Shown here piece after piece: positions 19,672 through 62,006 of a stretch of DNA of 64,000 nt (positions are counted from its first letter, which is position 1; the number at the start of each line of letters is the position of its first letter). The position numbers and the translations under genes are program-made. Under the pieces are notes generated by a model. The model ran no database searches. It was not told where the DNA came from and saw nothing but the letters and a program-made list of their open reading frames with translations. The stretch comes from Felis catus (taxonomy: Eukaryota), in contig NC_058368.1 in the NCBI RefSeq assembly GCF_018350175.1, positions 35,900,001-35,964,000 on the forward strand, read 5' to 3'.

Positions 19672-19807
19672 CAGTCTTCATTTCTAACAAGCGCTTTTTC
19701 TTTTGTTGGCGTGCAAGTCTTTCTTTCTCTGCTAATTCTTTGGCTATTTGGGCACGTTTTTCCCTTTCCTCTGCTTCTCTTTTTTTGATGTTCTCCTTTC
19801 TTGCTTG
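19672..19807 (-). CDS. DIAPH3: DIAPH3 internal coding exon, 136 nt (helical/basic segment just before the DAD); probably orthologous to human exon 25
   Basis: Minus strand reads ...tttgtttgtaacag|CAAGCAAGA...ATGAAGACTG|gtgagt. Translation: QARKENIKKREAEEREKRAQIAKELAEKERLARQQKKKRLLEMKT plus 1 nt. It continues the frame from ...FRTTFM. Confidence 0.96.
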
Positions 19808-40360: not shown

Positions 40361-40525
40361 CATGAATGTGGTTCTGAAGTTATTCAAGTCATTAAAAAAG
40401 TCTTCCACAGACACCTTCTTCACATCAATGGCGTAGTATCCCATCACACTCTGGTATAACGTTTCCATGTTTTCGTGTAACTTTAAAAGTTTCCCGTATT
40501 GTTCTTTTGCACTGATAACAAAGCT
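40361..40525 (-). CDS. DIAPH3: DIAPH3 internal coding exon, 165 nt (end of FH2); probably orthologous to human exon 24
   Basis: Minus strand reads ...tcccttaactctaagatac|AGCTTTGTT...ACATTCATG|gtatgt. 55 codons: SFVISAKEQYGKLLKLHENMETLYQSVMGYYAIDVKKVSVEDFFNDLNNFRTTFM. It is in frame with the upstream exon when the AC acceptor is used. Confidence 0.96.
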
Positions 40526-40899
40526 GTATCTTAGAGTTAAGGGATTCTGAAATTTACAAAGTAATGTTTTAGGAAAAAAAAATACCCTGTGAATCCAATG
40601 TTTGAATTATTAGTCACTATTACACATCTCCGAAATGCCAAAATTACCTCTAACAGGTCATTGTTCTCAAAACTCAATCTATCCTGTACGACAGTAAAAT
40701 CTTAACACCAATCTCTAATTAACTCCGGCCAAATTATCAGGAAAGTTAAATATTTATTTTTTTTATATTTGACAATTGAGTCCATGGAAATTATACTTCC
40801 AGTGTATGTATGTACATTATTCACATCATTCAATATGATTTAAATTATAGCTCAGTGTCTGATATTGAGTAATTTCAATGATATTGAAATCAACCACAT

Positions 40900-41110
40900 G
40901 GGCGCTGAACACAGCAGTTAAACTGGATGCCCGATGTCAATTTCCAGCTCCCGCACTTGCTGGTTGCCTGTGGGCACATGCCTTAATCTCTCTGGGCTAG
41001 GACTTCCTCATCTGTAAAATGGGAATAAGAATATCATCCATTTCACAGGGCTGCTGTGAGGATTAAACACGTTAATAATTCAAAATTCTTAGAAAAATGA
41101 ATAGCATTTT
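40900..41110 (+). mobile_element. MIR SINE relic
   Basis: MIR core ccttaatctctctgggctaggacttcctcatctgtaaaatgggaataagaata...gtgaggattaaa. Confidence 0.78.
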
Positions 41111-41216
41111 GTAGTACATGTAAATCCCTTTTTTTTATTGCATTTTGGGTTATATATGTGGTTCTAAAGTCCATCAAAAAATAAATTAAGAGTTACATTA
41201 AAAACTTCAAATATTA

Positions 41217-41439
41217 GGGGCGCCTGGGTGGCTCGGTCGGTTGAGCGTCCGACTTCGGCTCAGGTCATGATCTCACGGTCCGTGGGTTCGAGCCCCGCGT
41301 CGGGCTCTGTGTTGACAGCTCAGAGCCTGGAGCCTGTTTCAGATTCTGTGTCTCCCTCTCTCTGTGACCCTCCCCCGTTCATGCTCTGTCTCTCTCTGTC
41401 TCAAAAATAAATAAACGTTAAAAAAATTAAAAAAAAAAA
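41217..41439 (+). mobile_element. Young CpG-rich CanSINE inside the U12 intron
   Basis: Perfect TSD aaaaacttcaaatatta (41200-41216 / 41440-41456). Confidence 0.95.
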
Positions 41440-41875
41440 AAAAACTTCAAATATTACAGAACTTCATGTTTTAAATTCTCCTTTGGAAAACTGGGAAGTG
41501 ATTTATTTTATGCATTGCATCATCTAAAATTATGATCTGGCACATACACATACAGAAATATTCTCTTCTCATTTATTACAACACAGTTCAAAACACACTG
41601 ATTTTCAGAAGACTAACAGTGTGAATGTTGCAGTGGCATTAGAAAACATTTTCTAAACAAACCATAGAATTTCCTTTGTGGTGTGACAAATTGCTAATGC
41701 AGTTAGATATACCATACTTCATTCTGAAAAGATGACTCTGTTAGAGCATCATTCATAATCGTCTATGGCTCCTTTAAACTGGGACATTTAAAGAAATGGA
41801 ATATACAGAATTAAGCTTATCCAAGCCATTTTATTGTCTCTGACTAATGCAAAAAAAGAAAGATGTTAGTATATT

Positions 41876-42072
41876 TTTAAATTTTTAAATATTTGTTTAG
41901 TTATCTGTTTTTGGGGGGAGAGGCAGAGAGAGGGAGAGAAAAAATTCCCCACCAGGCTCTGCACTGTCTGCACAGAGCCTGATGCAGGGCTTGATCTCAC
42001 AAAGTGTGGGATCATGAGCTGAGCCAAAATCAAGAGTCGGACACTCAACCAACTGAGCCACCCAGGCGCCCC
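41876..42072 (-). mobile_element. Older CanSINE inside the U12 intron
   Basis: Reversed SINE ending ...ctgagccacccaggcgcccc. Confidence 0.9.
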
Positions 42073-44409
42073 AGTATACATATAGTTTTTTAAAGTCAGT
42101 AATAAGAATAACTAGATTCGTACCAAGAAAAGAAAACCAAAAAAGGAATTTTTATAACCAAAAAAAAAAAAAAAAAAAAAAAAGATTTTCCACAATTTCA
42201 AAAGATAACGGTTCCTCTGGTCAGAGTATTCCCCAATGGAAGATAAAATAAGGAAACCGATCTCGGCCTTTCATTTTGAGAAAGGAAGGCTGAAAAAGAA
42301 AGAGGCAGCATTGCTGTTAGATGGGTGGTGAAATCCAGGGGGGCATGGAAAATTTCTAATAATTAGAGCCCAACCTCCCCCAAAAAAGGCATTCCAGTCC
42401 ATCACGGCTCACTTGTACCCATGTCTGGGGTCAGTCCACAGATTACTTACTGCCCTTCTATGCTGGTTATTTCTCCCTCTCTGCACCCCCCAGACTATGC
42501 CCTGCTTACTTTTATATTTAGCATTTTAGGGGAAAAAAAGAGTATACTAAATATTGGAGTCTGGATTCTAATGGAAGGGTTAATACTTTTTTTAAATAAC
42601 CTTAAGAAAATCTATAGACCTTTCTGTCGTCCAGTTTATATTCATCTGAGTAGCAAAATGCCTCCTTATATTTTCTAGAATCTGGATCATAATAGCAGCA
42701 GTGGCTGATGAATTTATATGTAGTATCATTTTTTAATGCTTGCATAAACAAAAGATTTTCTGTAATTACTCAAATCACAAAATCACAGGAAATTATAATA
42801 CAGTCACACTTGACAGATTTCCATACACTTTGTCTTATGAAATATCCATATTCATGAAATATTATAAAGCAAATGTATGTAAATTGAAAAATCACGTTTG
42901 AAACACATTCAGAAACTAATATTAAATGGACCATATGGTGACTCATTTGTAATGTGAAATAATCAGTCCTTCATTTATATAGTAAGGTCAGAAATCAACA
43001 TTGGTTTATCTATTCAATCTATAAACTTTCACCTAAAATTATTTATGTCCCAGAGACAGACTATCTCCATATGGATTATTTATACATCCTTAACTCTTGT
43101 CTAAAAGAGAAATTGTTTTCTGCCTTTGCTCGCCCAAACCTATCATTCAAAGTTTCCTTCAATTATTCCTCTTCCACAAAGCCTTATTTTCTAATTTCCA
43201 CAGTAAGAAGTTCGTTCCACTGAACACATAGCATTTGCAATCCATTGTACTCAGCTGGAACGGAGGGGAGTTTTCCCTTCTAGACCAATTCCTTGATAGC
43301 ACTTTGCTCTTGCCACATTTCTAGAGGATGGCCACGTTGGACTGTCAGCCCCTTCTGTGGATGCTGTGTTCCACCTTCTCAGTACTTGTCTGCCACTACA
43401 TTCGTGTCAATTACTCATCTCCCCCTAGTGAGTCATCAAATTTCCATCAGTGGGAAGGTAACAGTCTTTCTCAAAAGTGTGATGAAAGCCACAGAACTTC
43501 TATTCAAAAAAGTCCATCTCTATGCATTCACACACATACAATTTGGATGTAATGCTAAGAGTTAACAGAGTCCCTGAAAAGTAGTTTTGCTGGACAACAT
43601 GTTAAGTAGGCTACTTTAGTGGGCGTTTCTAATTGTATGGTCCTAAAGCTACTCCTTGTCTTTCCCCTCACTGACTGCATAGTAAGGCTTTGCGTTTTAA
43701 TAAGAGGCACTTCACAAATATGAGTAATTTTATCCTGACACCTGTGAATACTCCCTTTCTCAAGAATCAGTTTGGTAAACAGGTTAAAACAAAGCTGTAA
43801 GTATTACCCAGTAACACTTTTTGAGATTTTCAAGTAGTAATCACAAGTTTATGAAACATCAGAAATAATATTAATACTATATTCTTAATAAAAGTACTAC
43901 AATTCTATGTAAACATAAAAAAGATGTGATGGGAAAGAAAACCAAGAGTCAAAACCATGGAGATGACATGGTCTTGTTCTGACAGCTAGAGTGCTTTATA
44001 AGTTAATTTTCTTATCGTTGTTATCTAGAAAACAATTTGCTCCCAAGGGAAATGCAATGGAGCTTTGAATAACTGGAATTACCCACGAGAATGGTAAAAT
44101 TGTGATTGAACAGAAACAATTTTGGAAATAGTCAAATTAATTCTCACTTTAAAATGATTGTCTGATAGGATAGAATAAATGATGACATTGATGAGGCACT
44201 CTACATCCCTATTGATGGGCTAGTCTCTCATTATGAGATGGTGAAACCACCCAGCACAAATACGTACTACATTTATTCTTACATCCTGCCCTCGTTATTG
44301 CTTCCCCCAACAAGGATATCTATTACTTCCATTAACACATCTTACAAGGACCAGCTCCAATCAGTCCTACATGCCTGATACCTTTTATAGATCTTAAGTA
44401 CTCGGGATC

Positions 44410-44800
44410 CAGCCAGGCAGCCAACCAGCTAGTCAGTAAGTATTCCCTAAGCTCCACTGCATTCCACTTTTCTGGGCAAGAGAGGAAACACTGGTTAACG
44501 AGGTAGGCAAAATCCCTGCTTTCATGAAACATACATTCGAGAGTGTAGTGACAGAATAAAGAAGTAAATGAATGAGATGTTCAGATAGTGATAAGTATGA
44601 TCATGAAGATAAAGGTCTGTGATATTAGACAGGGAAGTCCTGGCTAAGGGGACATCGCCTCAGACAGGGAGTCATCACTGTGAAAGGAGCTGTGAGCACC
44701 AAGCTGTGCAGCACCCTCTATAAGTGCAATAAGACCTCAGGGAAGGAAAAGATCATCGTCACTTTGGATGAGGACCAGGATATTTTAACCTGAGTTTTAC
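44410..44800 (-). mobile_element. L2 3' end relic
   Basis: cagtaagtattccctaagctccactgcattcca...aggcaaaatccctgctttcatgaaacatacattc...tcagatagtgataagtatga. Confidence 0.65.
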
Positions 44801-47800
44801 AAGTCCCTTCAGGACGAGTTAAACGGAAGACAAGGAAGGAAGAAAGAGAGAAGAGAGAGAAGAGTAAGTCAACAGAAAAATTTGCCATGACAAACCACCC
44901 AATTACCCAAACTCCCACTCTTGCAAATAGACAGGTGTTACATGAGTTTACATTTCCCAGATCCCGTTCCTCTATTTTACTCTCTAACCAGTGTTCAATT
45001 AAATAAAAATGTACTGAATTCCTTTACCTAAAAATGCTGTGTCTTATGCAGCATGGAATACAGATAAAAGACCTAAGCCCTTCAAGGAACTTATTAGGAC
45101 AGTTTCGCCTCTACATAATACTTTCAAAAGCACCTAAAGCATTGATATATACTAGAACAACAAAAAAGAAAGTGTGAAAATTGAGTAGGACTGCAATGAA
45201 CAAATTTAAAGACTATAACATGGGAAAAGGCAAGGAAACTGCAACATAAGTGGTAAAAAGTAAAAAAAAAAAAAAAATGAATGTCTGGCAAAACAATTTT
45301 TTTCTAAGAAACTCAGGAGGTGGGGTAGGAAGAGAAGAAAAGGTAAATAAATCCTTGTGCAGGGAGAACTTCAAGGGCAATGGTCTAGGATCTATTTGTT
45401 ATTTTCCTTGACATATGAAATATTCCAGAATCTAAAGATGAAAAGAAATGAACAGGTACTGCATGACACAAATCCTAGCATTTTCCTGATTTTCTCACAT
45501 ATAAGAGCTTAGTAAGTATGTGTGCTTCACATGTAATAGTTTGCATATAACAATGTTGGTGATCCTGCCTCAAATTCCTGTCACACATTTTTCAAGCAAA
45601 TATTTACAGTAGAAATGGTTAACTCCAGTTGTATTTCTGACCCAAGTTTAGCAGTTATAAAGAAATATAAATATTACAAAAAGGGCAATGTGATATATAT
45701 GAAATAACTGTACATGCATTTTAAAGGATATGCTAAATTCATATTTTTATACTCAGTATATGAAAGTAAAGAGAGTGCACTAAAAAAATAAAATTACAAT
45801 ATACTATAATTGAATGCTAACAGGGAAATTTCACATAACAAAATTATATCATTATAATTTAAAACAATTCAATTAACAGATTATTTAAGCTACTAAATCA
45901 TGACTGTTTAAATATCTACTTGCATAAATGCATCCCTAACAACTTAGATAATACACATATTCTTTTAGAATTGGTTGGCGAACCCAACAATTTGACATGT
46001 TTCAACTAATAAGCACAAAAACTTAAAACATAAACAAAGTTAGAGCGTTAATAGCCCAAACTTTAGTTAAATACATTTTTATTCATTGTGCATTTTAGTT
46101 TCTGAATCCTTTCATTTTGTAAGATCTGATTAAGAAGCTCACAATTTGCCACTTTAATAAGATCTATATAAATCCATTTAATATTCAAAATGTGACTTGT
46201 TGTCAGTCCTAATTAAAGTAAACAAAGCTTTGCAATGAATGAATTTAATTACTTCGAAACTAGTATGTCTAACCAAGATGAAAAGCAAACCAGTGCAATC
46301 TAATCTCAGCAAAGAATATTTATGATTATAAGCTTTGTCAATAGCAAAGTGCACCAACTGTTCGTATATCTGACTTCCAAGAGATACATGAATGCTAATC
46401 AGTTCATTAGAGGCTTCTAGGTTGTGATATTTAGCGACAGGATGTAGTAGCTTTCTTGTCCATGGAGTATAATTGTACTCAGAATGAAAAATTGTTTCCA
46501 ACAAAGCATCATCCTTCCTGTTTCTGATTTCCTGCTGGTTGCTTTTTATGAGCTGCATACCTTTCCAGAAGCCAACATCATTCAGCTTCTTGTGTCATAT
46601 GAATACAAGTATGGATAGGTCCTGAGATCGTCTGCTGAGCAGGATTCTACCACCTTCCCTCTAAGCTCAGGAATTTATCTTAGTTTATAGGTTCTAGAAA
46701 CCGGAGCCTCATAATTAGTATGCTCAAAGTGTATTACCAGAAACTGTATGCAGGCAAACCCTTTGCTAAAATGCATTCTCTCTATAGGGAACAATAAAAG
46801 TACTTCAATTAACAGTGCTTAATGATTAAAATAAACTGTCACATATGAATATTTTAACATGATAAAATGATGGAGGGAAAAAAGGCTAAGAATGATGAAA
46901 CTAATGTAACTCTGCAATAACAAATTTGTTTTAAAAAGCATACTTTGCCAAATGAGAAGGTGCTGCAAGAGTATTTTTTGATGGGTAAATACAGATTTCA
47001 CCTTTGGTTTTAAAAAAAAAAACAACCCTTCTCAAATGTAGCGATAATGGCACACTGCCTAATAAAAGAAGAAACTGGATGAGTAGGAAAGATATGAAAG
47101 GAAACAAACACATTAGCCTGAATTGATTGTTGCTGGAGTGCATTTTTATGATATTTCCCAAAAGAGACAGTGAACAAAGCTAAAATTGAACTAATTCACA
47201 ATTAAACTGAAAGCATATACAATAAAATCTATGACAAACCAAATAATAATTTTGTGATTTGCTAAATCTCAGGGGAGAAGGCACAGAAAGAGGAAAAGCA
47301 GTTATTTTATTTCAACCATCTCAGTTTAAGATATGAGGAGTGTCTATTTATAAGAGCTCATTGGAAGTGGGTTATCCTTTCATATAAAATTCTGAGGTCC
47401 ATATGGGATTTTAATAATGCATTGTAGTAATACTTTATTGTAACACAAAAGATATCAGTCTCTAATCTCATAGAATGGTTTGCAAAGCAACTCAACATTC
47501 ATTTCAGGAAATTAAAAAAAAAAAAGTTTATTACTTCAATTACTCATTAGAGAATAAGCCACAAAGTTAGTGAAACCAAAGATAATCGAATTCAAAAGAA
47601 ACCTTTAAATTAAGCAGGACACAAGTCTCATTTATGTATATACATAATACACACATACACACGCACATATGTATATGCACATACACTGATACTAATTTGT
47701 GTTTGGAGAAGACCTGCATGAGTAGTGATCATGACAAATTCCATTTTGATTTTGGAACTATGCAGTATTTCTAAATATCTTTAATACTAAAGTTTCTGGA

Positions 47801-48247
47801 ATGAGATCATTCTTTATACCAACCCTTGAAATTAAGCTGACAAGTCATACCAGTTTCTAAAATCTGCATATCTTTCCTGAAACATTTCAAAAGTATCTAA
47901 ATCACATCCCGATAGTAGATATCAAACTTCCTCAAACTGAGTTTTCATGTCCTTTCAATTTCTCATGAACATCACAAGGAAACAGGGCAAATGGAAGGGA
48001 AAAGAGGAGAGAAAATGTCCAAATGGATACAAAGTGAAACAAACAAACAAAAAGAATAGAAAGCAAAGTACATTTCTGTATCATTCATGATAGGCAAACA
48101 CATTGATAAATTTCCCTGCAAGAAGGCAAAGGCTAAAACTGTTATCTGGCACTGTAGGATAAGCACTGGTTATGCAAATATACCTACATCATTAAATAAA
48201 TTGTAACTCTAGTTGACTAGTGAGTTATTTAGATATCAGAAGGATAT

Positions 48248-48372
48248 GGACATCTTTGTCAGAAACTTATCATGCAAGTCCTCAGGAGGGGGAAAGGTTT
48301 CCAAATCTTTCTCAAGCTGTTGAAGCTGCCTTCCCATCTGCTTCAAATTCTTTTCCAGCGTTTCTACAGAGA
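48248..48372 (-). CDS. DIAPH3: DIAPH3 internal coding exon, 125 nt (FH2 C-terminal region); probably orthologous to human exon 23
   Basis: Minus strand reads ...ctcttttag|TCTCTGTAGAA...AAGATGTCC|atatccttc. Translation (phase 1 in, phase 0 out): (V)SVETLEKNLKQMGRQLQQLEKDLETFPPPEDLHDKFLTKMS, recognisable as the diaphanous-3 FH2 domain. U2-type AG acceptor and U12-type AT donor. Exon number is from memory. Confidence 0.96.
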
Positions 48373-49074
48373 CTAAAAGAGAGTATATTAAATGACTTGA
48401 AAGGACAAAATTATAATATATAAAAGGTAAAACACTCTAGGAACAAAATATTTGTGAAAAACCTTCCGATAATAAAGAAAGAAAATTCACTATACTAGAG
48501 GTAAACTAAATTCCACTTTTTAAAAAGCTTTTGATATTTAAAGGCAAATATAAAGGAAATTTCATATTTTTTTTAAAAAGAAGATGGAATTTAGGAAACG
48601 CTCACATGAACAAACTACATTTAATAAGTAAGTTTTGTTGAAAATTAGAGCCCTTGACCTCAACAAACGCTACAAAAGAATCCATCTATGCAGAAAAAGA
48701 GGCAAAGAAAGACTTTTAAACATAAACCAATTTCAATGCAGTTTTCACATTTTTCAAAATCATGATCTCTTGAGAGGAAACAATCAGTGCATGGAAAAGA
48801 CAGGGACGAGGATGCTCTATTGCCCAAGCTCATCTACAATAGGAATGAAAAGGTATCAGAAGCTACTTGAGCAACACATGGAACAAATATCACATCTTCT
48901 TTATTGGTACCCTGAGCACAATCTGTGTTTATTATCTAATGACAATCTCTCTTCTTCGACTTAAAGTTGCTCTCACAGTGCACATGAAGGAACTAGCGGT
49001 AGATCAGGGACCAAGGCACTATCAAAATGTATTGGTCGCCCAGTACGACGTTTAAGAATCATTACCTGAAATCT

Positions 49075-49291
49075 TTTTTTTTTTTTTTTAAGTTTGTTTA
49101 TTTTTGAGAGAAAGAGAGACAGAGTACGACCAGGGGAGGGGCAGAGACAGAGGGAAACACAGAATCCGAAGCAGGCTCCAGGCTCTGAGCTGTCAGCACA
49201 GAGCCCGACGTGGGGCTCAAACTCACGAACAGTGAGATCATGACCTGAGCCAAAGTCAGACCCTTAACTGACTGAGCCACCCAGGCACCCC
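49075..49291 (-). mobile_element. CanSINE
   Basis: TSD cattacctgaaatct (49060-49074) / cattacctaaaatct (49295-49309). Confidence 0.93.
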
Positions 49292-49602
49292 CAGCATTAC
49301 CTAAAATCTATGCATAATTTTAGATGACATCAAGAATTAACAATATATAAAGATATAGCGACCCAAACCAAATGTTTGGGTTCAGATGAATTTTGGTTAA
49401 AACTTCCTTTTACTTCCCATCAGTGTGAAGTATATGAAATGATGCTTAAAAATACATATAATAATTCTAGGCATACAGCCATTTTTAGGCTTCCAATTAA
49501 TCCTGAGGAATGGATATAAGTCAGGTTTCACCTGTAAGAATGGGCATATTTTTGAAAGTAACCTGAATGCCCAACAAATGGGACTGAGTTAAAAAATATT
49601 TA

Positions 49603-49825
49603 GGGGCGCCTGGGTGGCGCAGTCGGTTAAGCGTCCGACTTCAGCCAGGTCACGATCTCGCGGTCCGTGAGTTCGAGCCCCGCGTCAGGCTCTGGGCTGA
49701 TGGCTTAGAGCCCGGAGCCTGTTTCCGATTCTGTGTCTCCCTCTCTCTCTGCCCCTCCCCCGTTCATGCTCTGTCTCTCTCTGTCCCAAAAATAAATAAA
49801 AAAAACGTTGAAAAAAAAAAATAAA
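49603..49825 (+). mobile_element. Very young CpG-rich CanSINE (ggtggcgcagtcgg / ctgggctgatggc type)
   Basis: Perfect TSD aaaaaatattta (49591-49602 / 49826-49837); CpGs retained. Confidence 0.95.
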
Positions 49826-51499
49826 AAAAAATATTTATAAATCTCTATATACAAATATACATATAAATAAATATATATGGTTATAGTCTTAGTTCAATAA
49901 AATGGAATGGAAGGGAAGCATGAAAAATCATATTGCGTAAGAATATGGAGTTTTGTTTTTTAAACTAGCTGTATATAAAATAACATTTGTTATTCTATTC
50001 ATAGCTTTTAATATAATATTCTAATATTCTGTTATATTAATAGCTGTTAATAAAACCTTAACGTATTTTGTTGCAAAATCAATTAGCGGGCTAATTTTCC
50101 GATACAATGTTTTCCAGTGAATGAATTCTTCAGAGAGCCACATGTAATGTTTGTGCCCAAAGACCAACAATATGTTAACCTTTGGCTCCCACTGTAGTGA
50201 AGCCATTGTGAAGTTATACTGATGCATATTTTCTCATTAGTTTTTTGCCACTCATGTCTCCCCTCTCTGTCAGTCTTAAATATAAGACAATAACGCACAA
50301 GAGTACATAAACTATTTGTCATGACAGCACTTAGTGTATTAATTAATTCTTTCTATTTAACTCAAATACCCAAATCTTTGCTGTACATTACTCATGATGG
50401 TAACACATGGTTCCTAGGCTATGCTCTTTTAATTTTATGTCTGTTTGTCAATTATTCACAACCAAGACATCTATTTAATTAGGCCTAGGGTGTTTCATTT
50501 ACTCTTCTCATTTCCAATTTTTTTTTTTTTTTGCTTCTTTCAAAGTTCTCTATCTGAACTACAAGAAGAGATTCCTTTTGCTTTCCTAGTCTATTTGATC
50601 TCTCTTCTAACATTTCATTAGCATTTCCCCTATCACTTCTCAAGAAATCTTACAGGTGGTTCAGTCATTTTTATACATCCTTAAGCTGTGAAACTTCTCA
50701 TTAAATAAATACAAGTTCAAAAACACATAAAATCATTCTGAGTAAATATGTGCTCAGAACAGTTTATAAACTGTATAATCACTTTGCGCTATAAATCAGA
50801 TTAAAAAAAAAAGGATATTAGCAGCATAATATTAGCCATAGTCCTAATGTGTTAGGACAGTAGCAATGGCTAAAATTTATTAAGTGTCCTGAGGTCCTTT
50901 CTGAAGTGTTTTCCATTGATTTTTAAAATCCTCAGAAGATAATCATGAAATAGATATTGTTATTATCCCATTTTACAGATCACATTTTATGGATGACTAA
51001 ATCAGAGTTGAGGAAAAGTCCAACAATTAAAAGTAATGAGGTCACAATTTGAACTAAGGCAATTAAATTCTAGACTTGATTTTTAACTGTTCTGCTATAC
51101 AGAAAATACTTTATTTTTACAACTACTACCTGTCAGCAACTACGTTTAAGTACACGGATGTAGTTTTCACATAATGACTTTCTTATATTCTCGCCTAGTA
51201 CAATTACATATGGCCAAACCCAGGGGAATAGATGTAAGTATTCTGGGCGGATGGCTGTATGACAGATAGATATGCTACCATATTTTTTAAATGAACATTT
51301 AAATTTAATGAGTTAACACACCATTGAACAAAACCACATACTTAAAATACTATGTTTTACTCCACTAATCCAATTTCTTATACATACACATATTTGGGAA
51401 ATACCTAGAGAAAGGACAAGTAAGTCTAAGCTTCAAATGTAACAAAAAGCACAAGGCAAACATTGGGAGGGGACACAGATTATTTCTTTCTTTTTTTTT

Positions 51500-52280
51500 T
51501 TTTTTCCTTGATAACTAATCCATCATTCTGTCAACTCTCAGATTCTGACACCAATTGGGTAATCTTCCACTTCAATTCTGACACTAACTACCTAGAGTTA
51601 ATGCGGACCCCCACAGGCTTAAGGACTCAGCTCCAGGAGACTGCCCTCACTTCAGAAGACCATCACAAGTCCCAGGGATCACCCATCACCCACGCTTCTG
51701 ACTAACTAGCTATAGATTCAGGGGTTCCCATGCCCCCCCTCCTGCTTATTTTCCATAACTTGATGTTTTACAGAATTCAAAGTACCAAACCTGCTATTAC
51801 AGTTTTATTGTAAAGGACGCAATTCAGGAAGAGCCAAAGGGAAGATAAACACAAAGAACGGGGGTGGAGGGTAGTACAGAGTCTGCATGGTTTCTATGGG
51901 CAAACCCCAGCACATCAATCTGTTTCCAAAACAGAAGCTTCCCCTCAGCCTCACTGCTTCAGGGTTCTTACTGAAGCTTTGTTACACAGGCATGATTGAT
52001 CAAATCATTGGCCATCAGTGACTCAAGTCTATCTCTAGTCCCTTTCCCCTCCCTGGAGGTCACAGGGTAGACTGACAATTCTAACCCTGTAATCACAGAC
52101 TTGTAGCCTCTGGTGACCAGTCCCCCATCCTAAAGCTGTCTAGGGTCCTCCCCCTACATCTACCCGAGTCATCTCATTAGCATACAAAATAGGCTCTTAT
52201 CACTTAAGAAATTCCAACGATTTCAGGTGCTCTATACCAGGAATCTGGAAAATGACCAAACACATATTTTTAAATATACC
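51500..52280. mobile_element. MER21-like ERV solo LTR
   Basis: tcaattctgacactaactacctagagtta...gaccccacaggcttaaggactcag...gactgccctcacttcaga...gagtcatctcattagcatacaaaa...aaattccaa...atgaccaaacacatattt. Confidence 0.8.
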
Positions 52281-53639
52281 ATATGGATATATAGAAGTGC
52301 ATGTCTGGAGAGAAGGCAGAACTCCAGTACCTGTGAGGAAGTATAAAAAAAAACCAAAAAAACAAAAAAACAAAAACAAAAAAAAGTACATTTTGATTCA
52401 TGAGCTGTGTTGCTCCCAGCTGTCTAACAGCCTGGGTCACCCTCCGAAAAGCCATCCCAATGAGTGATGAGCACTTCCCAGTGGGAAGAGAAAAAGGCTT
52501 AAGAAAGAAGCCTGTGAGCCTTTTCCAACTGTCTGTTAGCCAGCGGGTCAGCAACTATATTCTATCATTGTGATGTGGAGTTGTTCCTCACTGGCTCAAC
52601 TTCCACATCAGTGAAAGGGTTAGAAGCCTATCTTCTATTTTTACCTCATGGGTATTTCATAAAAGATCAAATTGTATAACATATGATGAGGAATTTTTTT
52701 AAGAGGGTGCACCGTGCTGTGTTATTCTTAGAATTCAATAAGAAATGAAGAGCTTAAAGGCTAACATTAGTAATACTAGAATCAAAAAGTAAAGATAATC
52801 ATCACCATCAGCATCACCATTAGGCCAGAACAGTGTTGTGAAAGTCAGGCTAAAAAGAAAAGTTGCTAATTTCAAGAATACAATATTCAGAGAGTTTGGG
52901 CATATTCAAACTTTTAATGCTGATGTCATAAAGAGCAAGTCAGCGGTCTTAAGAAATGTTTCTTGCAGCTTCTCTACAGATGGAAAGCCATTATTTATGC
53001 TTTATTAGCAGTCTCTGGTTACATTATTTGTACATTATGGCTAAGAGGATTTAAGTATAAGTGACCAACTTTCACTGGTTTTTAAATAAGGACCAAAGTA
53101 CACTTCCAAGAGAAAAAGATGTGAGCAAATTCTAGGCTTAAAAAAAAACAAACAACAACAACAGCAAAACCATAATGTCTGGGACATCCGATGGGTAAAA
53201 CTAAAGAATATGTAAGAATTTCTTTGGTGTCTTTCTTTTTCAGCAATTCTATTTCCACAGATAATTCCTTTACATATCCTCAAACATAATTTTAACCACA
53301 CTGTTCATAAGTGTCAAGTTTTTTTGAGGTCAGTGACTATATTTTTATATTAGAAATCCCAGCTACAGTGGCGTTTAATTGTACACCCTCAAAAAAGTGT
53401 TAATTTACTGGTGCCTCTGTGTGTGACCTGTATATGAATTTTATCTTTCAACATTGTCACATTCCTTGACCAAGAAATTAATCTTATTTTTTTTTATTCC
53501 TTTCCATTATTTGGAAGTAAAAACAAAAAACGCAGTCATCATCAAACAGAGTGGACTAGATTATTTTAAGGGCAATTTCCACTTTTGCATTTTACTCTAT
53601 TAATATTCAATCAGATGGGATGTCTGAGTCACCTCAGAT

Positions 53640-54405
53640 GTCATGTGCATCTGCCCCCAGGGCAACTGCCCATCTGTAATCTCCACACCCCAGTGGGTGG
53701 CAGAACCTTGAATTCTGTTTCTTGTAGAGACCTGCTAGTCTTTACCCTTCCCTCTCCTGTAACCTCAGATCCAATCATGACCTCGCTGGCATTTTGTTTA
53801 GCACATAGTATTTGACTTCTTGCTTGCTTGAGCACCATTCAAGTCTTCACTCTTCTCGGATCTCTGGTCTCCTTTTTTTCTTCAGTGCCTTTCCCACACT
53901 GTATGGAGGAGTTTCCAGACAAACACTAATGTAAAGATGTCCTTCCTCTGCTTAAAACCAGCCAGTAAACTGCTTTCGTGACAACATCTGAGCTCCACCC
54001 ACAACCTGGATTTCCTCTATTTCACATTCCGCTACATTTTACTCTGAGAACAACATCCTGCTTCTAGTTTCCCTCCCCCATCCCTCGACATCCACCCTGT
54101 TAGGTACTGATGCTGAAAAGAACAGACTATTTGCCTTGTCACCTCAATCACTCCTACTCATACATAATAACAAGAGTCAAAAACTCTAGCTAGTCCCCCA
54201 GTGAGATGCCCTCCCCACCCATCATACCTGGTAATTATATTTATCCTTGCAATTACTACACTCCATTACTTTTATCTTTGTGTGTGCCGTCCTCTCCCAA
54301 ATGACTAGGAATTCCTTGAGGGAAGATACCGTATTTTACTCGTCTTTGTATCTTCACGTACATAATGTATTGCAGACACTCAAATATTTGCGGAAGGAAT
54401 GGATT
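53640..54405 (+). mobile_element. Fragmented L2 relic
   Basis: cttcctctgcttaaaacc...actaggaattccttgagggaagataccgtattttactcgtctttgtatc...agacactcaaatatttgcggaaggaatgga. Confidence 0.55.
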
Positions 54406-55949
54406 TTGGATTTAGCTTTAACCTCTTGAGGTTAATAGAGTAAACATCTAAAACCTTAAAATCCAACACACATATTGGTCTTCAAGTGCCTCGTCATTAT
54501 GGTAATTATCCATTAGAGAGGTTAACCATAAAAGTTAAGTCACAACTATAAATATTTAAGTTTAAAGGAATCATGAATATAAGCATTCTGCAATGCAATG
54601 GCCTCCATGATTTGCTAAGACTTCAAGTAAGAGTGTAGGAATTACATACATTTAAATAATCTTTGTAATTAAATAAAAATCCTCTGTGAATAACTCCTGG
54701 AGATGCTGGTTATTATTTCATAACAAGCTTACTAAGAAATGTCACATTCATTCTTACATCTCATGATACATTCTGGGGAAACTGATTTCTTTAAAGAACG
54801 CTTAAACAACTTATTAGCATAAAACAATTCAAACATTCAACCTAAATTAACCTTCCCTTGCTCACAAACACGGCTGTTTTATGAGGGCCACAAACTAGGG
54901 GTTAAAGCAATTCCAGGCTCCCAAACAAATAACGGTGTTTTTTAAAAACCGTACGAATATTTTATAAACGTGAGTTAAAATAAAAACCAAACAGTAACTT
55001 AAATGGGCAAGATGGACAAAAACCTCAGCAGCATTTTAAAAAGCTCAACATTCGGTAGGCCTGTAACAAAATCTAAGTTCTAGAATATCGTTATGAAACC
55101 CATTATCATTTTGAAAAAGGCTAAAACTGAAGTAAGAGGACAGAAAAGTACAAACTCAACGTGAATTGCAGCTTGGTTCATGACAGGCAAAGGTAAACTG
55201 AAAGAAGCAGTGGGAACCGAGTGACCAGTCACCCTCCCCAAGCGCTGGCCTTCCACTGTGCAGCGCTTCTTCTGTCTCATTGTTCTGACTGTGAATGGGA
55301 CCCCTTAGGATAAATTGCTCCAACTTGCATTCCTTAACTTACCATATTATATGCAATGAGAGTTTTGTGGTTATTATTATTCTTTTTCAACATCACACTG
55401 CAAGAGAACAGCCGATGTTTGTATGGAACGTGGGAAGAGGTAAGAGAGAAGAAAAGTCCTATTTGTAAGGATGAACGTAGCCAATCAAAGAGCTCCCTTG
55501 GATCAGTTCGGCTGAATGGTCCTCCCCCCACACCCCTCCTTACTCTCCCTCCTCCTCCCCAACCCCCAACTCTGAGGGATAGAAGCAGCCTTGTCCTCTA
55601 CAACCATGAAGAGAGTGTTAAAGGTAAATCAGCTCTTTAGAAAACAGTATTAGTGAGACCAACCTATTTAATAGATCACTATTACCTATAAAAATTTGAA
55701 AATTCAAGAAAATTCACGATGTTCAAGAACATGGTAAATATTATACAAAAAAGGTCCATCATAGAGATGTTTGTAACAATATTCAAAGCATTCCCTCATG
55801 AAAATGGTTTTGTGTGCCTGTGTATGGGAAGGGAGAGGCTACCACTTTTACTGTGTCCTCATGGCAAATATGAAGCATAGGTCGGATCATGTGTGAATTC
55901 TAAGACAAATTTTCACATATGACTAGGAGAGACCATGCAATCTCACACG

Positions 55950-56800
55950 TCCTGGACTGCTTATCTCTAGACTTGAAAAATTTCATTTTTCTCCCGCACA
56001 TCTATCTTCCACCCGAGCTCCAACTGCCTATTGAACATCTTTCCTTGATATTTAGTAGGCATCTTAAACTCACACTTTCAAATTGGAACTTCTCTTCCTC
56101 CTTGAATCCACTTCTACATCTCAGTATGTGATTGGTGTTGTGACTCCTCTTTCTGTCGTACCCAACACACCCAACCTTGGACAAAGTCTTGCTGGTTCTA
56201 CCTTCAAAGTCTGAATACTTCCCACCACAGTTGCTACCTCCTCCTTCTGGTCCCAGCCAACATGCTTTCTCCCCTGGATGATTATTACAGCATCTGAGTG
56301 GTTTCACTGCTCCTGCATTGTTCTATATTTTTTCCCTGAGCACAGAAGCCAAAGCAAGCCTTTGAAAATACAAGTCAGATGCCACCCTGCTGCTCAAAAC
56401 CTTTCTAATGGCTCCCTATCTCAGAGTAAAGTCAAAATCCATCTAATGATGAATCATGTCCTATAGAATCTGTTACTTTTCTGGCCTTACCTTCTTTTAT
56501 GCCTTGCTTCCTCACACGTCCCTCACATTTTTTTTCACAAAGGCCACCTTCTCTAGGGGGCCTTCTCCGACCACTCAACATTAATTGTGGGAGAAACAAA
56601 ACAAAACCCTACCCTGGAATTCTAGAACTAACCATCTAACAAAATATACATGGACTTCTTCATTTGGCACATGTTCTGGAAAATGGAAACTTCAAGAGAG
56701 CAGAGACTTCTTCTGTGCTCATGGCCCTATCCAGAATCCCAAACTGTGTCTGGACAGAAGAGACACTCGATAAATGGCTCTTCAAATAATGAATGAATCA
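55950..56800 (+). mobile_element. L2a-like LINE relic
   Basis: tccaactgcctattgaacatctttccttgatatttagtaggcatcttaaactca...ctcaaaacctttctaatggctccctatctcagagtaaagtcaaaatcc...aatgaatgaat terminus. Confidence 0.8.
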
Positions 56801-57000
56801 ATCTTATTTAAGCCACTGCTTCATTTCTTCCCTCTCAAAATCAAGTCTGATCTTTTCCAACACAAGTGCTTAGCACACTGTCTGCTACACAGTGAGAATT
56901 CAACAAAATTTTTGGAAAGATTCCTTTCCTTCTAGGGTCAAAATATATCCACAACTATTAATGAGCACTAGTACTTTTTCCCTTTAAATATGTAGCTTGA

Positions 57001-57142
57001 GGGGCGGCACCTGGGTGGCACAGTCGGTTAAGTGTCCGACTCTGGATTTTTGGCTCCATACTGGGCGTGGAGCCTGCTGGAGATTCTCTCTCTCCTTCTG
57101 CCCTATCCCCCTGCTTGCTCACTCTCTCTCTCTCAAAAAAAA
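57001..57142 (+). mobile_element. Internally deleted older CanSINE
   Basis: The head joins the 3' half directly at a single GGCTC (57052-57056); compare the intact copy at 35316. Confidence 0.85.
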
Positions 57143-58019
57143 GGTTAGTTTGACAGACACCTGCTCAGAAACTGTCCTAACAGTGATACACATATTCACA
57201 TGAACAAAGAGTCTCGTTGCTGATCAATTTTCAATCTATACTAGAAGATGACCTCTTCTGAGGGGAGAGGGGAAGGTTATCCAGACTACATTTTCTTTAG
57301 GTTTTTCTATGAATACAAATATCTTTTTCGATGTTTCTAGCAACTTATATCATTTATCGTGTTACTTCATGTTTCATATGGAAATGGAAAACATTCCCAA
57401 GTAACTAATTCCTTAATAATTCTGGGCCGGTAAATTTGTGTTTTAAACAACATGCAGACACCTCCAGAAAAAAGTAAGTCCAAGTCAAAGAGGTGCTGGA
57501 CCCTAGCTATTTTTTACAGGCTTTTAATAGTAGAAGCCCTCTTTCAAAAGAAATCTTATTATTGAAGTTCAAAAGAGGAAATAAAAATAGTGACTCAGGC
57601 TGAGGCAGAAGAAGGAAAATAAAACTCATTTTCCAAATTCCATTTCTCTATGCTAGTATGTTCAACTAGCAAAATTGCATTGTGTTGTGCATTTATGATT
57701 TGTGAAGTTTCCCACATCTATATCATTCTTTAGGTTTTAGAAAAGTAAATAATATTTTAGAAAAGTAAATAATATTTTCAATAACATAAATCTATGCAAT
57801 TATTAGCTTTGTATTCTAAAGCTTGCATAAGTTTCAGGCAAGACACAGTGGGATCTGTTCAAATAATGATTCAGAATACATGTTAAAATTATGTAATTAT
57901 ATGACTCAGAGAGACATTTTTATCTGCATCATTAATGATAGACTAGGCAGATGTGTGTCAACAAGAAATTATCATTGAAAAATAACAGCTAAAACTATAG
58001 CAAATATAGAGAATATTTA

Positions 58020-58245
58020 TATAGTCCTTACATGATGCTATTCAAGCTTTGTAAGTATTTACACATATTCACGTATAACCTCACAGCAAACCTCTGAATT
58101 AGGTACAACTATTATCCCCATTTTATAGGTAAGAACACTGAGTCCCAGTGGGGATAAGTAACTCATCCAAGGTTATAGCTCCAGCAATGGGCAGAGCTGG
58201 GGTTTGAACACCAGGTGTCTAACCTCAGAGTCTGTGACTGTAACA
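58020..58245 (-). mobile_element. MIR SINE relic
   Basis: aggtacaactattatccccattttataggtaagaacactgag...ggcagagctggggtttgaac is the reversed MIR core. Confidence 0.8.
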
Positions 58246-58609
58246 AAAGCTTCTCCCATAATACAATGCCTCTATAATCTAATTGGGATCACATTTTTAT
58301 TTTGCCTACTGAAATTATTTATTGGAGTTATTGTAACTCTCACTACTTGTTAATAAAAATTCCTTATATTCAGAGGCATATTATAAATTTCAGTTTTAAC
58401 TGCTGTAGTATTTGCATGTGACGATGAAAGGGAAGGGTATTTCACAAGCTCATCAACAACAGCCCTTAAACACCAAAACATTTCACAACATAATGACAAA
58501 CTCTTTCCATATATATGTCTATCTGTGTAACTGCACTTCACCATTTTACGATACTCAGAGATGATGGTGCTGTATCAGGGCAGCCATGGGAGTGAGGACA
58601 AGGACAACT

Positions 58610-59251
58610 ATAGGGAGTTGAATAGTATTCCTCCCACCCCCCAAATTCATGGCCATGTAGCACTTAAGCATGCGACTTATTTGGAAATAGGATCTTTGCA
58701 CAGGAAATCAGTTAAGGATCTCAAGATGAAATCACCCAGGATTTAGAGTGACCCTTAAATGACTGGGGTCTTTTTTTTCTTTAATGTTTATTTATATTTG
58801 AGAGAGAGAGAAAGAGAGAGCACAAGCAGGGGAGGGACAAAGAGAGAGAGGGAGACAATCCAAAGGAGGCTCCTGGCTCTGAGCTGTCAGCTCAGAGCCC
58901 GATGCAGGGCTCGCACTGACGGACCGTGAGATCATGACCTGAGCCAAAGTCGGATGCTTAACCGACTGTGCCACCCAGGTGCCCCTACTGCTGTCTTTAC
59001 AAAGAAAGGTGAGAGACACAGAGGAGAAGACAAGATGAAAATGAAAGCAAGCTTGCTGGCAGCCACCAGAAGTTAAGAGAGGCCTTAGAGGGCTCCTCGC
59101 TGAAAGCCTTCAGAAGGAATCAATAGTAACTACACCTTGATTTCAGACTTCTGTATTCCTGAATAGTGAAAGAATAAATGAATATATCTCTGCTGTTTAA
59201 AGGAACTTAATATGTGGTAACTGGTTTATGGCAGCCCTATGAAGCTAATAC
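58610..59251 (+). mobile_element. MLT1 (MaLR, MLT1B/C-like) solo LTR interrupted by a CanSINE
   Basis: gttgaatagtattcc...ttatttggaaataggatctttgca...ccaccagaag...caccttgatttcagacttctg...agaataaat...atggcagcccta...ctaataca. Confidence 0.85.
58771..58985 (-). mobile_element. CanSINE nested in the MLT1 LTR
   Basis: Reversed SINE; degenerate TSD actggggtcttt / actgctgtcttt. Confidence 0.92.
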
Positions 59252-59329
59252 AACTATTATGTCAAGACTTTACAAGCTGCATATAGCCTGGTTTCTGGAG
59301 AGTGGTTGGCAATTTCACCTGCAGCATCT

Positions 59330-60010
59330 GAGCAACCCCAGGCCTCTTCACCCAGTTGGCTACACGTCAACTGTGTGAGCAGTGACATTCAGCAGATGGC
59401 CGGAAGTGAGTTTATCGCATCCACTGCTTAGGTTTCTTCATTGTGCACAGATTGATTTTGTTAAGCTATCCTTCAGCATGCTCTCATTCTGAAATTTTCT
59501 TTCATCCACCTTGTTTATAATTTTCCACTTTATGTTGCAAAACTGAGGTGCAGTAAATACTGCTTCGCCGTCAGCAGTCTGAGAGCTCTAAGACCTTGGT
59601 TGTCACTGTTGATCCTGTCTTGTTACTTGATGTCCTGTTACTTGATGTTAGATATGGCTCATAGGTGACACTGATAGAACTGTTCGAGTAGCTATTTCAA
59701 ATCTGTAGCTGGCCAAAAATCTGCAAACACTGTAAACTGTTAGTTTCTTGAAAAGATTAATGCTGTATTGATGCCACTTTCAGTCTGCTAACCTCCAAAA
59801 AGATATAGAGGTCTTCCTGATGTGTTTTTCTTCTTCATCATCATCTATCAGCCCAAGCAGCAGCCGATTCAGGAAATGTTCTCAGCTCAGTATCTCAAAA
59901 AGCAATCTTGAGCTGGAAGTACAGTTCCTCCATGCCTCGTGTTCCTCAATGTCAGTCTAAAGAATCCTTAATCCTTCTAGGGACTTTGGCCATGGTCTCT
60001 CTGCATTCCA
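59330..60010 (-). mobile_element. Ancient RTE-clade LINE fragment (L4/MamRTE-type), C-terminal ORF region
   Basis: Minus-strand translation across stops and frameshifts gives DTELRT..EKHIRKTSISF..RLAD*KWHQYSINL..KKLTVYSV..LLEQFYQCHL*AISNIK*QDRI..KWKNYKQGG, collinear with the RTE post-RT motifs as I recall them. Confidence 0.72.
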
Positions 60011-60764
60011 TTATGCTGCTTTTCAAAACAGTTTATATTTGCACAGAGAAACAGTGCAATACAACCTTACACGCAAGTCTCCAGTTGAAACTTTTGATGC
60101 CAACTCTATACAGAAAATCCCTGGAAATAAACTGGAACAATTTAAATAAAATGCTATTCATCAGACAACTTGGACCTTGTGGCCCTTTTCCCAGTAGACT
60201 GTGCTCACAGTATACTATATATGTTTTTCGTAAATCCTGTATTTACCTTGTGAATGGCCCAGTTATATCTCATCCTACCTTTTTATGTTAAAAGTGTTAA
60301 TCTGAATATAAAATTGCACAAATACTGCCCTTTTAGGACATATATGCAAACCTGTATGTGACTTACATTTTGAAAAAAAATTTGTCTTTTATTATGTTTG
60401 GCTTGTAGTGACATTAAAATTATTTTACAATTCCTAAGTATACTTATTAGATGGGTACAGATTGTCAAATTAGATCATGGAGACCTAGCTACATAGGAGT
60501 CATAAAGTAGCTTCCCAGGTATAACTTGTAATTTTACCAACTATCTGCAGAGTCCTGCTACACAGGTAGGAGACCCCAAATGTTTTCACTATTTCTATAG
60601 GATGATGCAAAAAAAGGCACAATCATCCATCCACACTTCCCTTTCAGAAAAGGGTCAACAGAGAACTCAGAGTGTTACTAGCCTTTATTGGCTACTTGCT
60701 TATAATAAAATTACAACTACTCAAGTAGCAAAACAGGGGTAGGTGGTAAAGAAATATACACAAG

Positions 60765-61224
60765 GGGGCGCCTGGGTGGCTCAGTCGGTTGAGCGTCCGA
60801 CTTCGCTCAGGTCACGATCTCACGGTCCGTGAGTTCGAGCCCCACATCAGGCTCTGTGCTGACAGCTCAGAGCCTGGAGCCTGCTTCAGATTCTGTGTCT
60901 CCCTCTCTCTCTGGCCCTCCCCCCGTTCATGCTCTGTCTCTCTCTGTCTCAAAAATAAATAAATGTTAAAAAAAAAAATTAGGGGTGCCTGGGTGGCGCA
61001 GTCGGTTAAGCGTCCGACTTCAGCTAGGTCACGATCTCGATCTCGCGGTCCGTGAGTTCGAGCCCCGCGTCGGGCTCTGGGCTGATGGCTCAGAGCCTGG
61101 AGCCTGTTTCCGATTCTGTGTCTCCCCGTCTCTCTGCCCCTCCCCCGTTCATGCTCTGTCTCTCTCTGTCCCAAAAATAAATAAACGTTGAAAAAAAAAA
61201 TTAAAAAAAAAAATTAAAAAAAAA
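60765..61224 (+). mobile_element. Nested CanSINE dimer; the second copy (from 60982) is inserted in the A tail of the first
   Basis: One outer TSD aaagaaatatacaca (60748-60762 / 61225-61239) encloses both; inner repeat aaaaaaaaaaatta. Confidence 0.95.
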
Positions 61225-61631
61225 AAAGAAATATACACAGGGATACAGTGAGTAAAAACATTCTAATATACCAGTGTAAAAAACATTCTAAAATAAAATC
61301 TAGGAGATGCCATTGATCTAACCCTGAAATTAAATGTGAACATTCATGAATATATTTATTTAGATTGCCTCAATATTTCCTCATATATGTACTAATCTGT
61401 GTCATGTCTATTCAAAAAAGGAATTGAGGCATACTTGCAATTATGTAAAATCATGTGATAACTCATGGTTTGCACAAAAGGCTTTGATATCCCTAAATTG
61501 ATTGCTAGTGAACATCTAACACAGCAGGTCTATGACTGTTTAAGTGATCTGATAAAGTAAAAAATCATTCTGTATAGGCTACTCTATTCTATAGCCAAAA
61601 AACCCTCAGCAAGAAAAATGTCTTAAGTTAT

Positions 61632-62006
61632 TCTATTAGTTTGCTAGGGCCACATCACAAATGCCACACACTGAGTGGCTTAAACAACAGAAACTTATTT
61701 TCATATAGTTCTTCAGCCCAAGACCAAGGTGTCAGTAATCTGTTTTTTTCTGAAGCCTCTCTTCTTGGCTTGCAGATAGATGGCTACCTTCCTGCTGTCT
61801 CCTCACATGGTCTTGGGTGCATGTGAATCCCCATTGTCTATCTGTCCAAATGTCCTCCTCTTATAAGGACACAAGTTAGATTGGATTAGGGCTGACCCTA
61901 CGAGCCTCAATTTACTCATCACCTCTTTAAACCCACATTCAATCACATTTGGAGATACTAAGGATTAGGGCTTCCACATATGGAGACAGAATTCAGTTCC
62001 TAGTAG
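61632..62006 (-). mobile_element. MLT1A-like MaLR solo LTR
   Basis: tattagtttgctagggc...gtggcttaaacaacagaaacttattt...aagaccaaggtgtcag...cctcttataaggacac...attggattagggc...aattcagttcc. Confidence 0.85.

Follow-up and report, generated by a model that had tools for sequence, protein, structure and literature searches.

The closest described counterparts of the intron treated here belong to the diaphanous-related formin genes, all of which (100%) are minor-intron genes according to a passage of one review (PMC6865273). Supplement file 1 of Olthof 2019 (PMC6717393) enters Diaph3/DIAPH3 as such a gene in both mouse and human, and file 8 gives it two minor introns per species, of 6,052 and 793 nt in human and 5,820 and 721 nt in mouse. 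In that work GT-AG introns make up about 72% of the minor introns and AT-AC introns 22-24%, and its methods place the best distance between the branch-point sequence (BPS) and the 3' splice site (3'SS) at 11-13 nt. The DNA analysed here, called the window, is a stretch of 64,000 nt of the Felis catus assembly GCF_018350175.1 (contig NC_058368.1, positions 35,900,001 to 35,964,000); window coordinates are used throughout, and the DIAPH3 locus lies on the minus strand. An earlier note on this stretch had counted the diaphanous genes among the minor-intron genes already on record and had called AT-AC the less common subtype, and the supplement rows, the review passage and the proportions just cited agree with it on both counts. 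We are highly confident that the segment 48247..40526 (-) is a U12-type AT-AC intron of phase 0 in the FH2 coding region of felid DIAPH3 and the orthologue of the human and mouse minor intron.

The intron is 7,722 nt long, and its AT and AC termini can be read directly from the sequence, with coordinates and strings exactly as the earlier note had given them. Exon A starts at 48372, its first codon being split across the upstream junction, and ends at 48248 with ...AAGATGTCC (longer context ...GACAAAGATGTCC), its peptide (P0001) closing with DKFLTKMS. The donor boundary is ...ACAAAGATGTCC/ATATCCTTCTGA at 48248/48247, the octamer ATATCCTT standing directly after the exon end. Near the other end of the intron lies the putative branch site TCCCTTAAC, which fits the U12-type branch consensus TCCTTAAC at seven of eight positions and offers two candidate branch adenosines, 40538 and 40537, which lie 12 and 11 nt before the final base of the intron, within the 11-13 nt optimum; a spacer of 10 nt (TCTAAGATAC) follows, with four pyrimidines in ten positions and no polypyrimidine tract, and closes with the terminal AC. 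The acceptor boundary is ...AATCCCTTAACTCTAAGATAC/AGCTTTGTT at 40526/40525, preceded in the intron by ...TCAGAATCCCTTAACTCTAAGATAC; exon B begins at 40525 with AGCTTTGTT (longer context AGCTTTGTTATCAGT) and encodes P0002, SFVISAKEQYGKLL...RTTFM, which opens with SFVISAKEQY. Octamer at the exon end, branch site, lack of a pyrimidine tract and terminal AC, the features of a U12-type intron that the note had pointed to, are all found here. Both neighbouring introns, judged from the flanking splice sites read in the window, are ordinary GT-AG introns.

The identity of the gene and the edges of its exons can be fixed from protein homology. Each exon peptide shows 100% identity with felid DIAPH3, the gene named in the note; for P0002 this holds in Felis catus, Puma, Lynx, Panthera tigris and other felids. 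A tblastn search of the window with Felis catus DIAPH3 isoform X3 (P0007, 1188 amino acids) recovered three exons, covering residues 908-949 (aligned at 48373..48248), 950-1004 and 1005-1049 (Table 1), and P0007 reads LTKMSSFVISAKEQYGKL across the junction. In the Pfam FH2 model (372 positions) the exon A peptide aligns with positions 276-317 (E 2.6e-5) and the exon B peptide, above the gathering score, with 318-371 (E 4.2e-9); in mouse mDia1 (1v9d_A), residues 1-41 of P0001 correspond to 210-250 (+1) and P0002 to 252-306. In both alignments the two peptides abut (317/318 in FH2), with neither gap nor overlap. The flanking exons accordingly encode the C-terminal part of the actin-nucleating FH2 domain of DIAPH3, which the intron divides as the note had proposed.

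The splice motifs are not enriched in the window when taken by themselves. The octamer ATATCCTT is found six times where 4.48 are expected, a count reached by 30 of 100 shuffles, and the pattern CCTTAAC-N6-12-AC is found twice against an expected 3.03. The informative part is the placement of the motifs on the exon edges, because homology fixes these edges without reference to splice signals. With per-position frequencies in the window of about 4.7e-5 and 1.6e-5 for the two motifs, the odds that both land on both edges are, by our own arithmetic and assuming independence, of the order of 1e-9. All six octamers lie on the minus strand, which is that of the gene (24230, 31837, 44312, 45724, 48240 and 50811), and two of the additional ones fall inside the AT-AC intron, at 44319..44312 and 45731..45724, upstream of its branch site.

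Evidence that the AT-AC junction is used comes from the proteins that cross it. KMS[S/R/I]F is read at this point in 95 of the 120 homologous proteins listed, and these, with the alignment to P0007, bear out the frame-keeping junction KMS/SFVIS put forward in the note. All eight junction-crossing proteins from assembled-read contigs (P0031, P0097, P0099, P0110, P0111, P0123, P0124 and P0133) read KMS[S/R]F; the contigs behind them are 1.4-4.5 kb long, shorter than the intron, and therefore represent spliced transcripts. P0031 is felid-like: its exon B is identical, but two differences among the 45 residues of the next exon show that it comes from another felid. P0116, Homo sapiens by its nr name, reads KMSRF. 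The M-S pair at the junction, or M-T in its place in the paralogues, has been conserved all the way from sharks to mammals, mDia1 included. When donor and acceptor were moved by every shift within 15 nt, the majority mRNA resulted from three placements (CA...TA, AT...AC and TA...CA), of which AT...AC alone has recognised termini. A search of sequencing runs found 18 that contain the exon; the kind of run was guessed, none being recorded as RNA, and these runs are evidence neither way.

The comparison with human and mouse that the note had called for places the intron among those already described. In the supplement of Olthof 2019 (PMC6717393) the DIAPH3 5' splice site (5'SS) string is TCCATATCCTTT in both species and the BPS is AAGTCCTTAACG in mouse and AATACCTTAACT in human, with position weight matrix (PWM) scores, human and mouse respectively, of 97.1 and 94.5 for the 5'SS and 84.2 and 76.4 for the BPS. 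The cat counterparts are TCCATATCCTTC and AATCCCTTAACT, the former matching TCCATATCCTTT at 11 of 12 nt, and the 6,052-nt human and 5,820-nt mouse introns correspond in size to the 7,722-nt intron of the cat. The cat DIAPH3 AT-AC intron is the orthologue of one already catalogued in these two species as minor, with near-identical signals, and in that sense it is already known. The cat is not named in the main text of PMC11347168, on a later release, covering 263 species, of the Minor Intron Database (MIDB) to which the Olthof 2019 listing belongs. In human and mouse, supplement file 2 of Olthof 2019 shows DIAPH3 expressed most strongly in testis.

The same arrangement recurs elsewhere in the window's own assembly (2.43 Gb, 71 contigs), in which a search with both exon peptides gave two paralogous matches for each. 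The copy near 117.27 Mb of contig C1 reads ...ATGACT/ATATCCTTT at its donor and ...GGTCCTTTAC followed by 13 nt to AC/AGCTTTGTG at its acceptor; compared by eye, 39 of the 41 residues of its exon A peptide agree with mDia1, and its branch string TGGTCCTTTACT is identical to the catalogue entry for human and mouse DIAPH1. The copy on C47 reads ...ATGACA/ATATCCTTT and ...GTTCCTTAAC followed by 10 nt to AC/AGCTTTACA, and we take it to be DIAPH2-like by elimination and from its intron of some 100 kb, no named match confirming it; an 80-kb minor intron on chrX is listed for mouse Diaph2 in Olthof 2019 (PMC6717393). All three copies thus have an AT-AC U12-type intron at one codon boundary, with intron sequences that diverge right after the octamer. 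That the signals are kept in all three paralogues would imply that the intron has been retained since the vertebrate gene duplications.

The small nuclear RNAs (snRNAs) needed to remove such an intron all have genes in the genome, the best Rfam scores being 157.6 bits for U12, 133.9 for U11, 146 for U6atac and 126 for U4atac, all above the cut-offs. Copies above the cut-offs number 12 for U12, 4 for U11, 21 for U6atac and 2 for U4atac, and most are presumably pseudogenes, since scores fall off sharply beyond the top one to three copies. When the last 25 intron bases were folded against the 5'-terminal 35 nt of the top-scoring U12 copy, a duplex of -11.6 kcal/mol with one bulged A was obtained at U12 nt 10-24; shuffles gave -5.8 +/- 1.9 kcal/mol, with 12 of 1000 reaching -11.6, and a U2-type control 3' end from the window gave -6.0 kcal/mol. 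Between the 5' splice site and the 5' end of U11 a 5-bp helix, TCCTT/AAGGG, can be drawn.

Recognition of the two elements by the U11/U12 di-snRNP (small nuclear ribonucleoprotein) and catalysis through U4atac/U6atac.U5 are established knowledge. Applied to this locus, U11 would bind the 5' splice site at ATATCCTT and U12 the CCTTAAC element, leaving the branch adenosine bulged; U11 would then be replaced at the 5' splice site by U6atac, within the U4atac/U6atac.U5 tri-snRNP, and the 3' end would be chosen by distance, as the AC 11-12 nt beyond the branch A, without the aid of a pyrimidine tract. Proper removal would join ...KMS to SFVIS... Translation through the donor gives KMS, then ISF, then a stop, and retention would be expected to cost the protein the last 55 or so FH2 residues and the entire C-terminal tail, or to lead to mRNA decay. 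Because retention gives KMS-ISF-stop, full-length DIAPH3 very probably needs the minor spliceosome, as the note had proposed, and DIAPH3, with its roles in cytokinesis, hearing and neural progenitors, would by implication be one of the genes at risk from a failing minor spliceosome.

Several observations weigh against the assignment of 48247..40526 (-) as a used U12-type AT-AC intron. Intron position +9 is C in the cat and T in human and mouse, and the first position of the branch site is C where the consensus has T. The duplexes of the 5' splice site do not stand out from shuffles, 690 of 1000 reaching the U11 value (-4.0 kcal/mol) and 502 of 1000 the U6atac value (-8.2 kcal/mol), but these helices are too short for such a test. 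Transcript support from felids consists of a single assembled contig, from a felid other than this one; other junctions are used in 17 of the 42 felid gene models and in six further models. No published account of DIAPH3 intron retention after minor-spliceosome loss was found in literature whose supplementary data were partly covered, and DIAPH3 has no occurrences in files 4 and 5 of Olthof 2019 (PMC6717393), the contents of which were not established beyond their setting the Diaph1 minor intron against mouse tissues. With DIAPH3 missing from these two files, the description of such introns as slowly spliced is unsupported for DIAPH3. Beyond reviews, no main text tying DIAPH3 to the minor spliceosome was found; the supplement of PMC8034651 has just an expression row for DIAPH3, and DIAPH3 is absent from the PMC6239176 supplement files searched, one file lying outside the search.

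The disagreeing gene models deserve closer attention. Of the 120 homologues, 25 depart from KMS[S/R/I]F, 23 by using another junction (17 KIYSF, 5 KIF and 1 KSF) and two by having no exon A residues; all come from genome annotation and none from assembled reads. All 17 KIYSF proteins come from felids, which have 42 entries in total, and a KMSSF isoform often exists in the species concerned. They correspond to a GT...AG pair displaced upstream by 4 nt at either end of the intron, at 48252/48251 and 40530/40529 (-), which changes MS to IY. The KIF models, eight from other species when three (beaver, coelacanth and reedfish) are added to the five among the 120, are two residues short and join the GT at 48251 to an AG two bases inside exon B (40524/40523, -); the species include macaque, lemurs, squirrel and tree shrew. 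P0121 and P0122, the two primate DIAPH3 models without exon A residues, pass from DKASK to RFVIS, which suggests either exon skipping beside the minor intron or model error. Most of the departures probably arise from the forcing of GT-AG, and minor introns would in this way continue to introduce small errors into the protein sequences of public databases.

The most serious alternative is that the felid models are right and the real junction is this GT-AG pair, ...AAGAT/GTCCAT...CTCTAAG/ATACAGC..., joined as AAGATATACAGC. The pair is present and keeps both frame and length, KIYSF appears in 17 of 42 public felid models, often beside the KMSSF isoform, and its AG (40531-40530) looks specific to felids, since the KIY models are all felid and the read-through open reading frames (ORFs) of other mammals lack it. 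Against this, KIY occurs in none of the eight junction-crossing proteins from assembled transcripts, the felid-like one included, and it would replace the conserved M-S (or M-T) described above. The donor context GAT/GTCCAT has few matches to the U1 consensus, and the AG lies just 6-7 nt beyond the branch adenosines, with no pyrimidine tract. An aligner charging AT-AC termini more than two mismatches, as default settings may do, would be expected to yield exactly a 4-nt shift. From their annotation-only origin, the poor GT context and the position of the AG, and with a single felid transcript to set beside them, the KIYSF models are probably annotation artefacts of forcing canonical termini, and we regard this alternative as very unlikely. 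A milder version, to which we would likewise give little credence, is that the felid AT-AC intron has gained an in-frame, nested GT...AG that the major spliceosome uses part of the time, giving an MS-to-IY isoform of the FH2 domain. If the GT-AG pair were used, felid DIAPH3 would no longer rely wholly on the minor spliceosome, and its intron would be a present-day halfway stage of U12-to-U2 conversion.

It is extremely unlikely that the AT-AC intron is nevertheless removed by the major spliceosome as a member of the U2-dependent AT-AC subclass. Such introns do exist (Wu & Krainer 1997; Dietrich et al. 1997, both as cited in Olthof 2019, PMC6717393), and share their terminal AT-AC with the cat intron. 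At this locus, the complete U12-type octamer ATATCCTT at the 5' splice site, the CCTTAAC branch site at U12-type distance and the lack of a pyrimidine tract before the 3' end all argue otherwise. U2-dependent AT-AC introns are not known to have the ATATCCTT octamer as 5' splice site or a branch site of the TCCTTAAC type, and the cat intron has both. The orthologous human and mouse introns, too, are classified as minor by PWM (Olthof 2019, PMC6717393).

That the motifs are chance matches, with exon edges elsewhere or a pseudogene at this locus, would suit their being no commoner in the window than in shuffles, but is ruled out by their exact placement on edges set by FH2 and mDia1 homology, by intact exons identical to annotated felid DIAPH3, and by the same arrangement in both paralogues and in the human and mouse catalogue.

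Table 1. Features of the felid DIAPH3 AT-AC intron, its flanking exons and the paralogous copies (window coordinates unless a contig is given).
Feature	Position	Strand	Evidence
AT-AC intron, read as U12-type	40526..48247	-	termini, signals, protein alignment, junction-placement scan, length against human/mouse catalogue
DIAPH3 exon A, 125 nt, residues about 908-949 of P0007, C-terminal end LTKMS	48248..48372	-	translation, tblastn, Pfam FH2 276-317, 1v9d_A 210-250
U2-type acceptor ctctcttttAG before exon A	AG at 48374-48373	-	sequence
U12-type 5' splice site ATATCCTT, intron +1 to +8	48240..48247	-	exact octamer, 11/12 nt with human/mouse DIAPH3 string including 3 exon bases
Putative branch-point sequence TCCCTTAAC, core CCTTAAC exact	40536..40544	-	sequence; pairing with own U12
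3' terminal AC	40526..40527	-	only placement with recognised termini
DIAPH3 exon B, 165 nt, residues 950-1004, then GTATGT donor	40361..40525	-	translation, tblastn, Pfam FH2 318-371, 1v9d_A 252-306
Next DIAPH3 exon, residues 1005-1049, flanks ...tgtaacAG and G/GTGAGT	19673..19807	-	tblastn, 100% identical
GT 4 nt upstream of AT terminus; donor of KIYSF and KIF models	48250..48251	-	sequence, placement scan
AG 4 nt upstream of AC terminus, in branch-to-3' spacer; acceptor of felid KIYSF models	40530..40531	-	sequence, placement scan
DIAPH1-like paralogue, intron about 574 nt	C1:117266735-117267595		matches L002, L005
DIAPH2-like paralogue, intron about 100.5 kb	C47:76822523-76923354		matches L003, L006

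Searched with P0007, the 15.6 kb upstream of exon A (48374-64000) held no further DIAPH3 exon, so that the preceding intron must be longer than 15.6 kb and the second catalogued DIAPH3 minor intron must lie outside the window. Within the AT-AC intron there is an inverted pair of carnivore heads that are short interspersed element (SINE)-like, at 41219-41238 (+) and 42051-42070 (-), about 830 nt apart; the window as a whole has 18 SINE-like heads at three or fewer mismatches, against none expected. The ORFs of the intron are repeat-like and random frames only, the repeat-like ones being translations of these SINE-like elements. No tandem repeats were found in the intron, and an Rfam scan of the window returned no family at its gathering score.

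The diaphanous-related formins are a textbook-level family with minor introns in every gene, and the present finding adds little to them biologically. DIAPH1 belongs to the same paralogous family and has a U12-type intron, the DIAPH1-like copy of the cat reading ACT/ATATCCTTT...GGTCCTTTAC...AC at the same codon boundary as DIAPH3. A DIAPH1 U12-type intron is retained in RBM48-knockout human cells, as followed by quantitative reverse-transcription PCR (bioRxiv 10.1101/2020.07.18.209528). However, DIAPH1 is another gene and has two minor introns, either of which may be the one assayed. The human and mouse DIAPH3 intron lies in the same gene, after the same exon end TCC, with 11 of 12 nt of the 5'SS, the CCTTAAC core and a comparable length in common, and its 5'SS string makes it AT-AC. 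The base before CCTTAAC is C in the cat, A in human and T in mouse, and the felids differ from both in having an additional AG, 4 nt ahead of the terminal AC.

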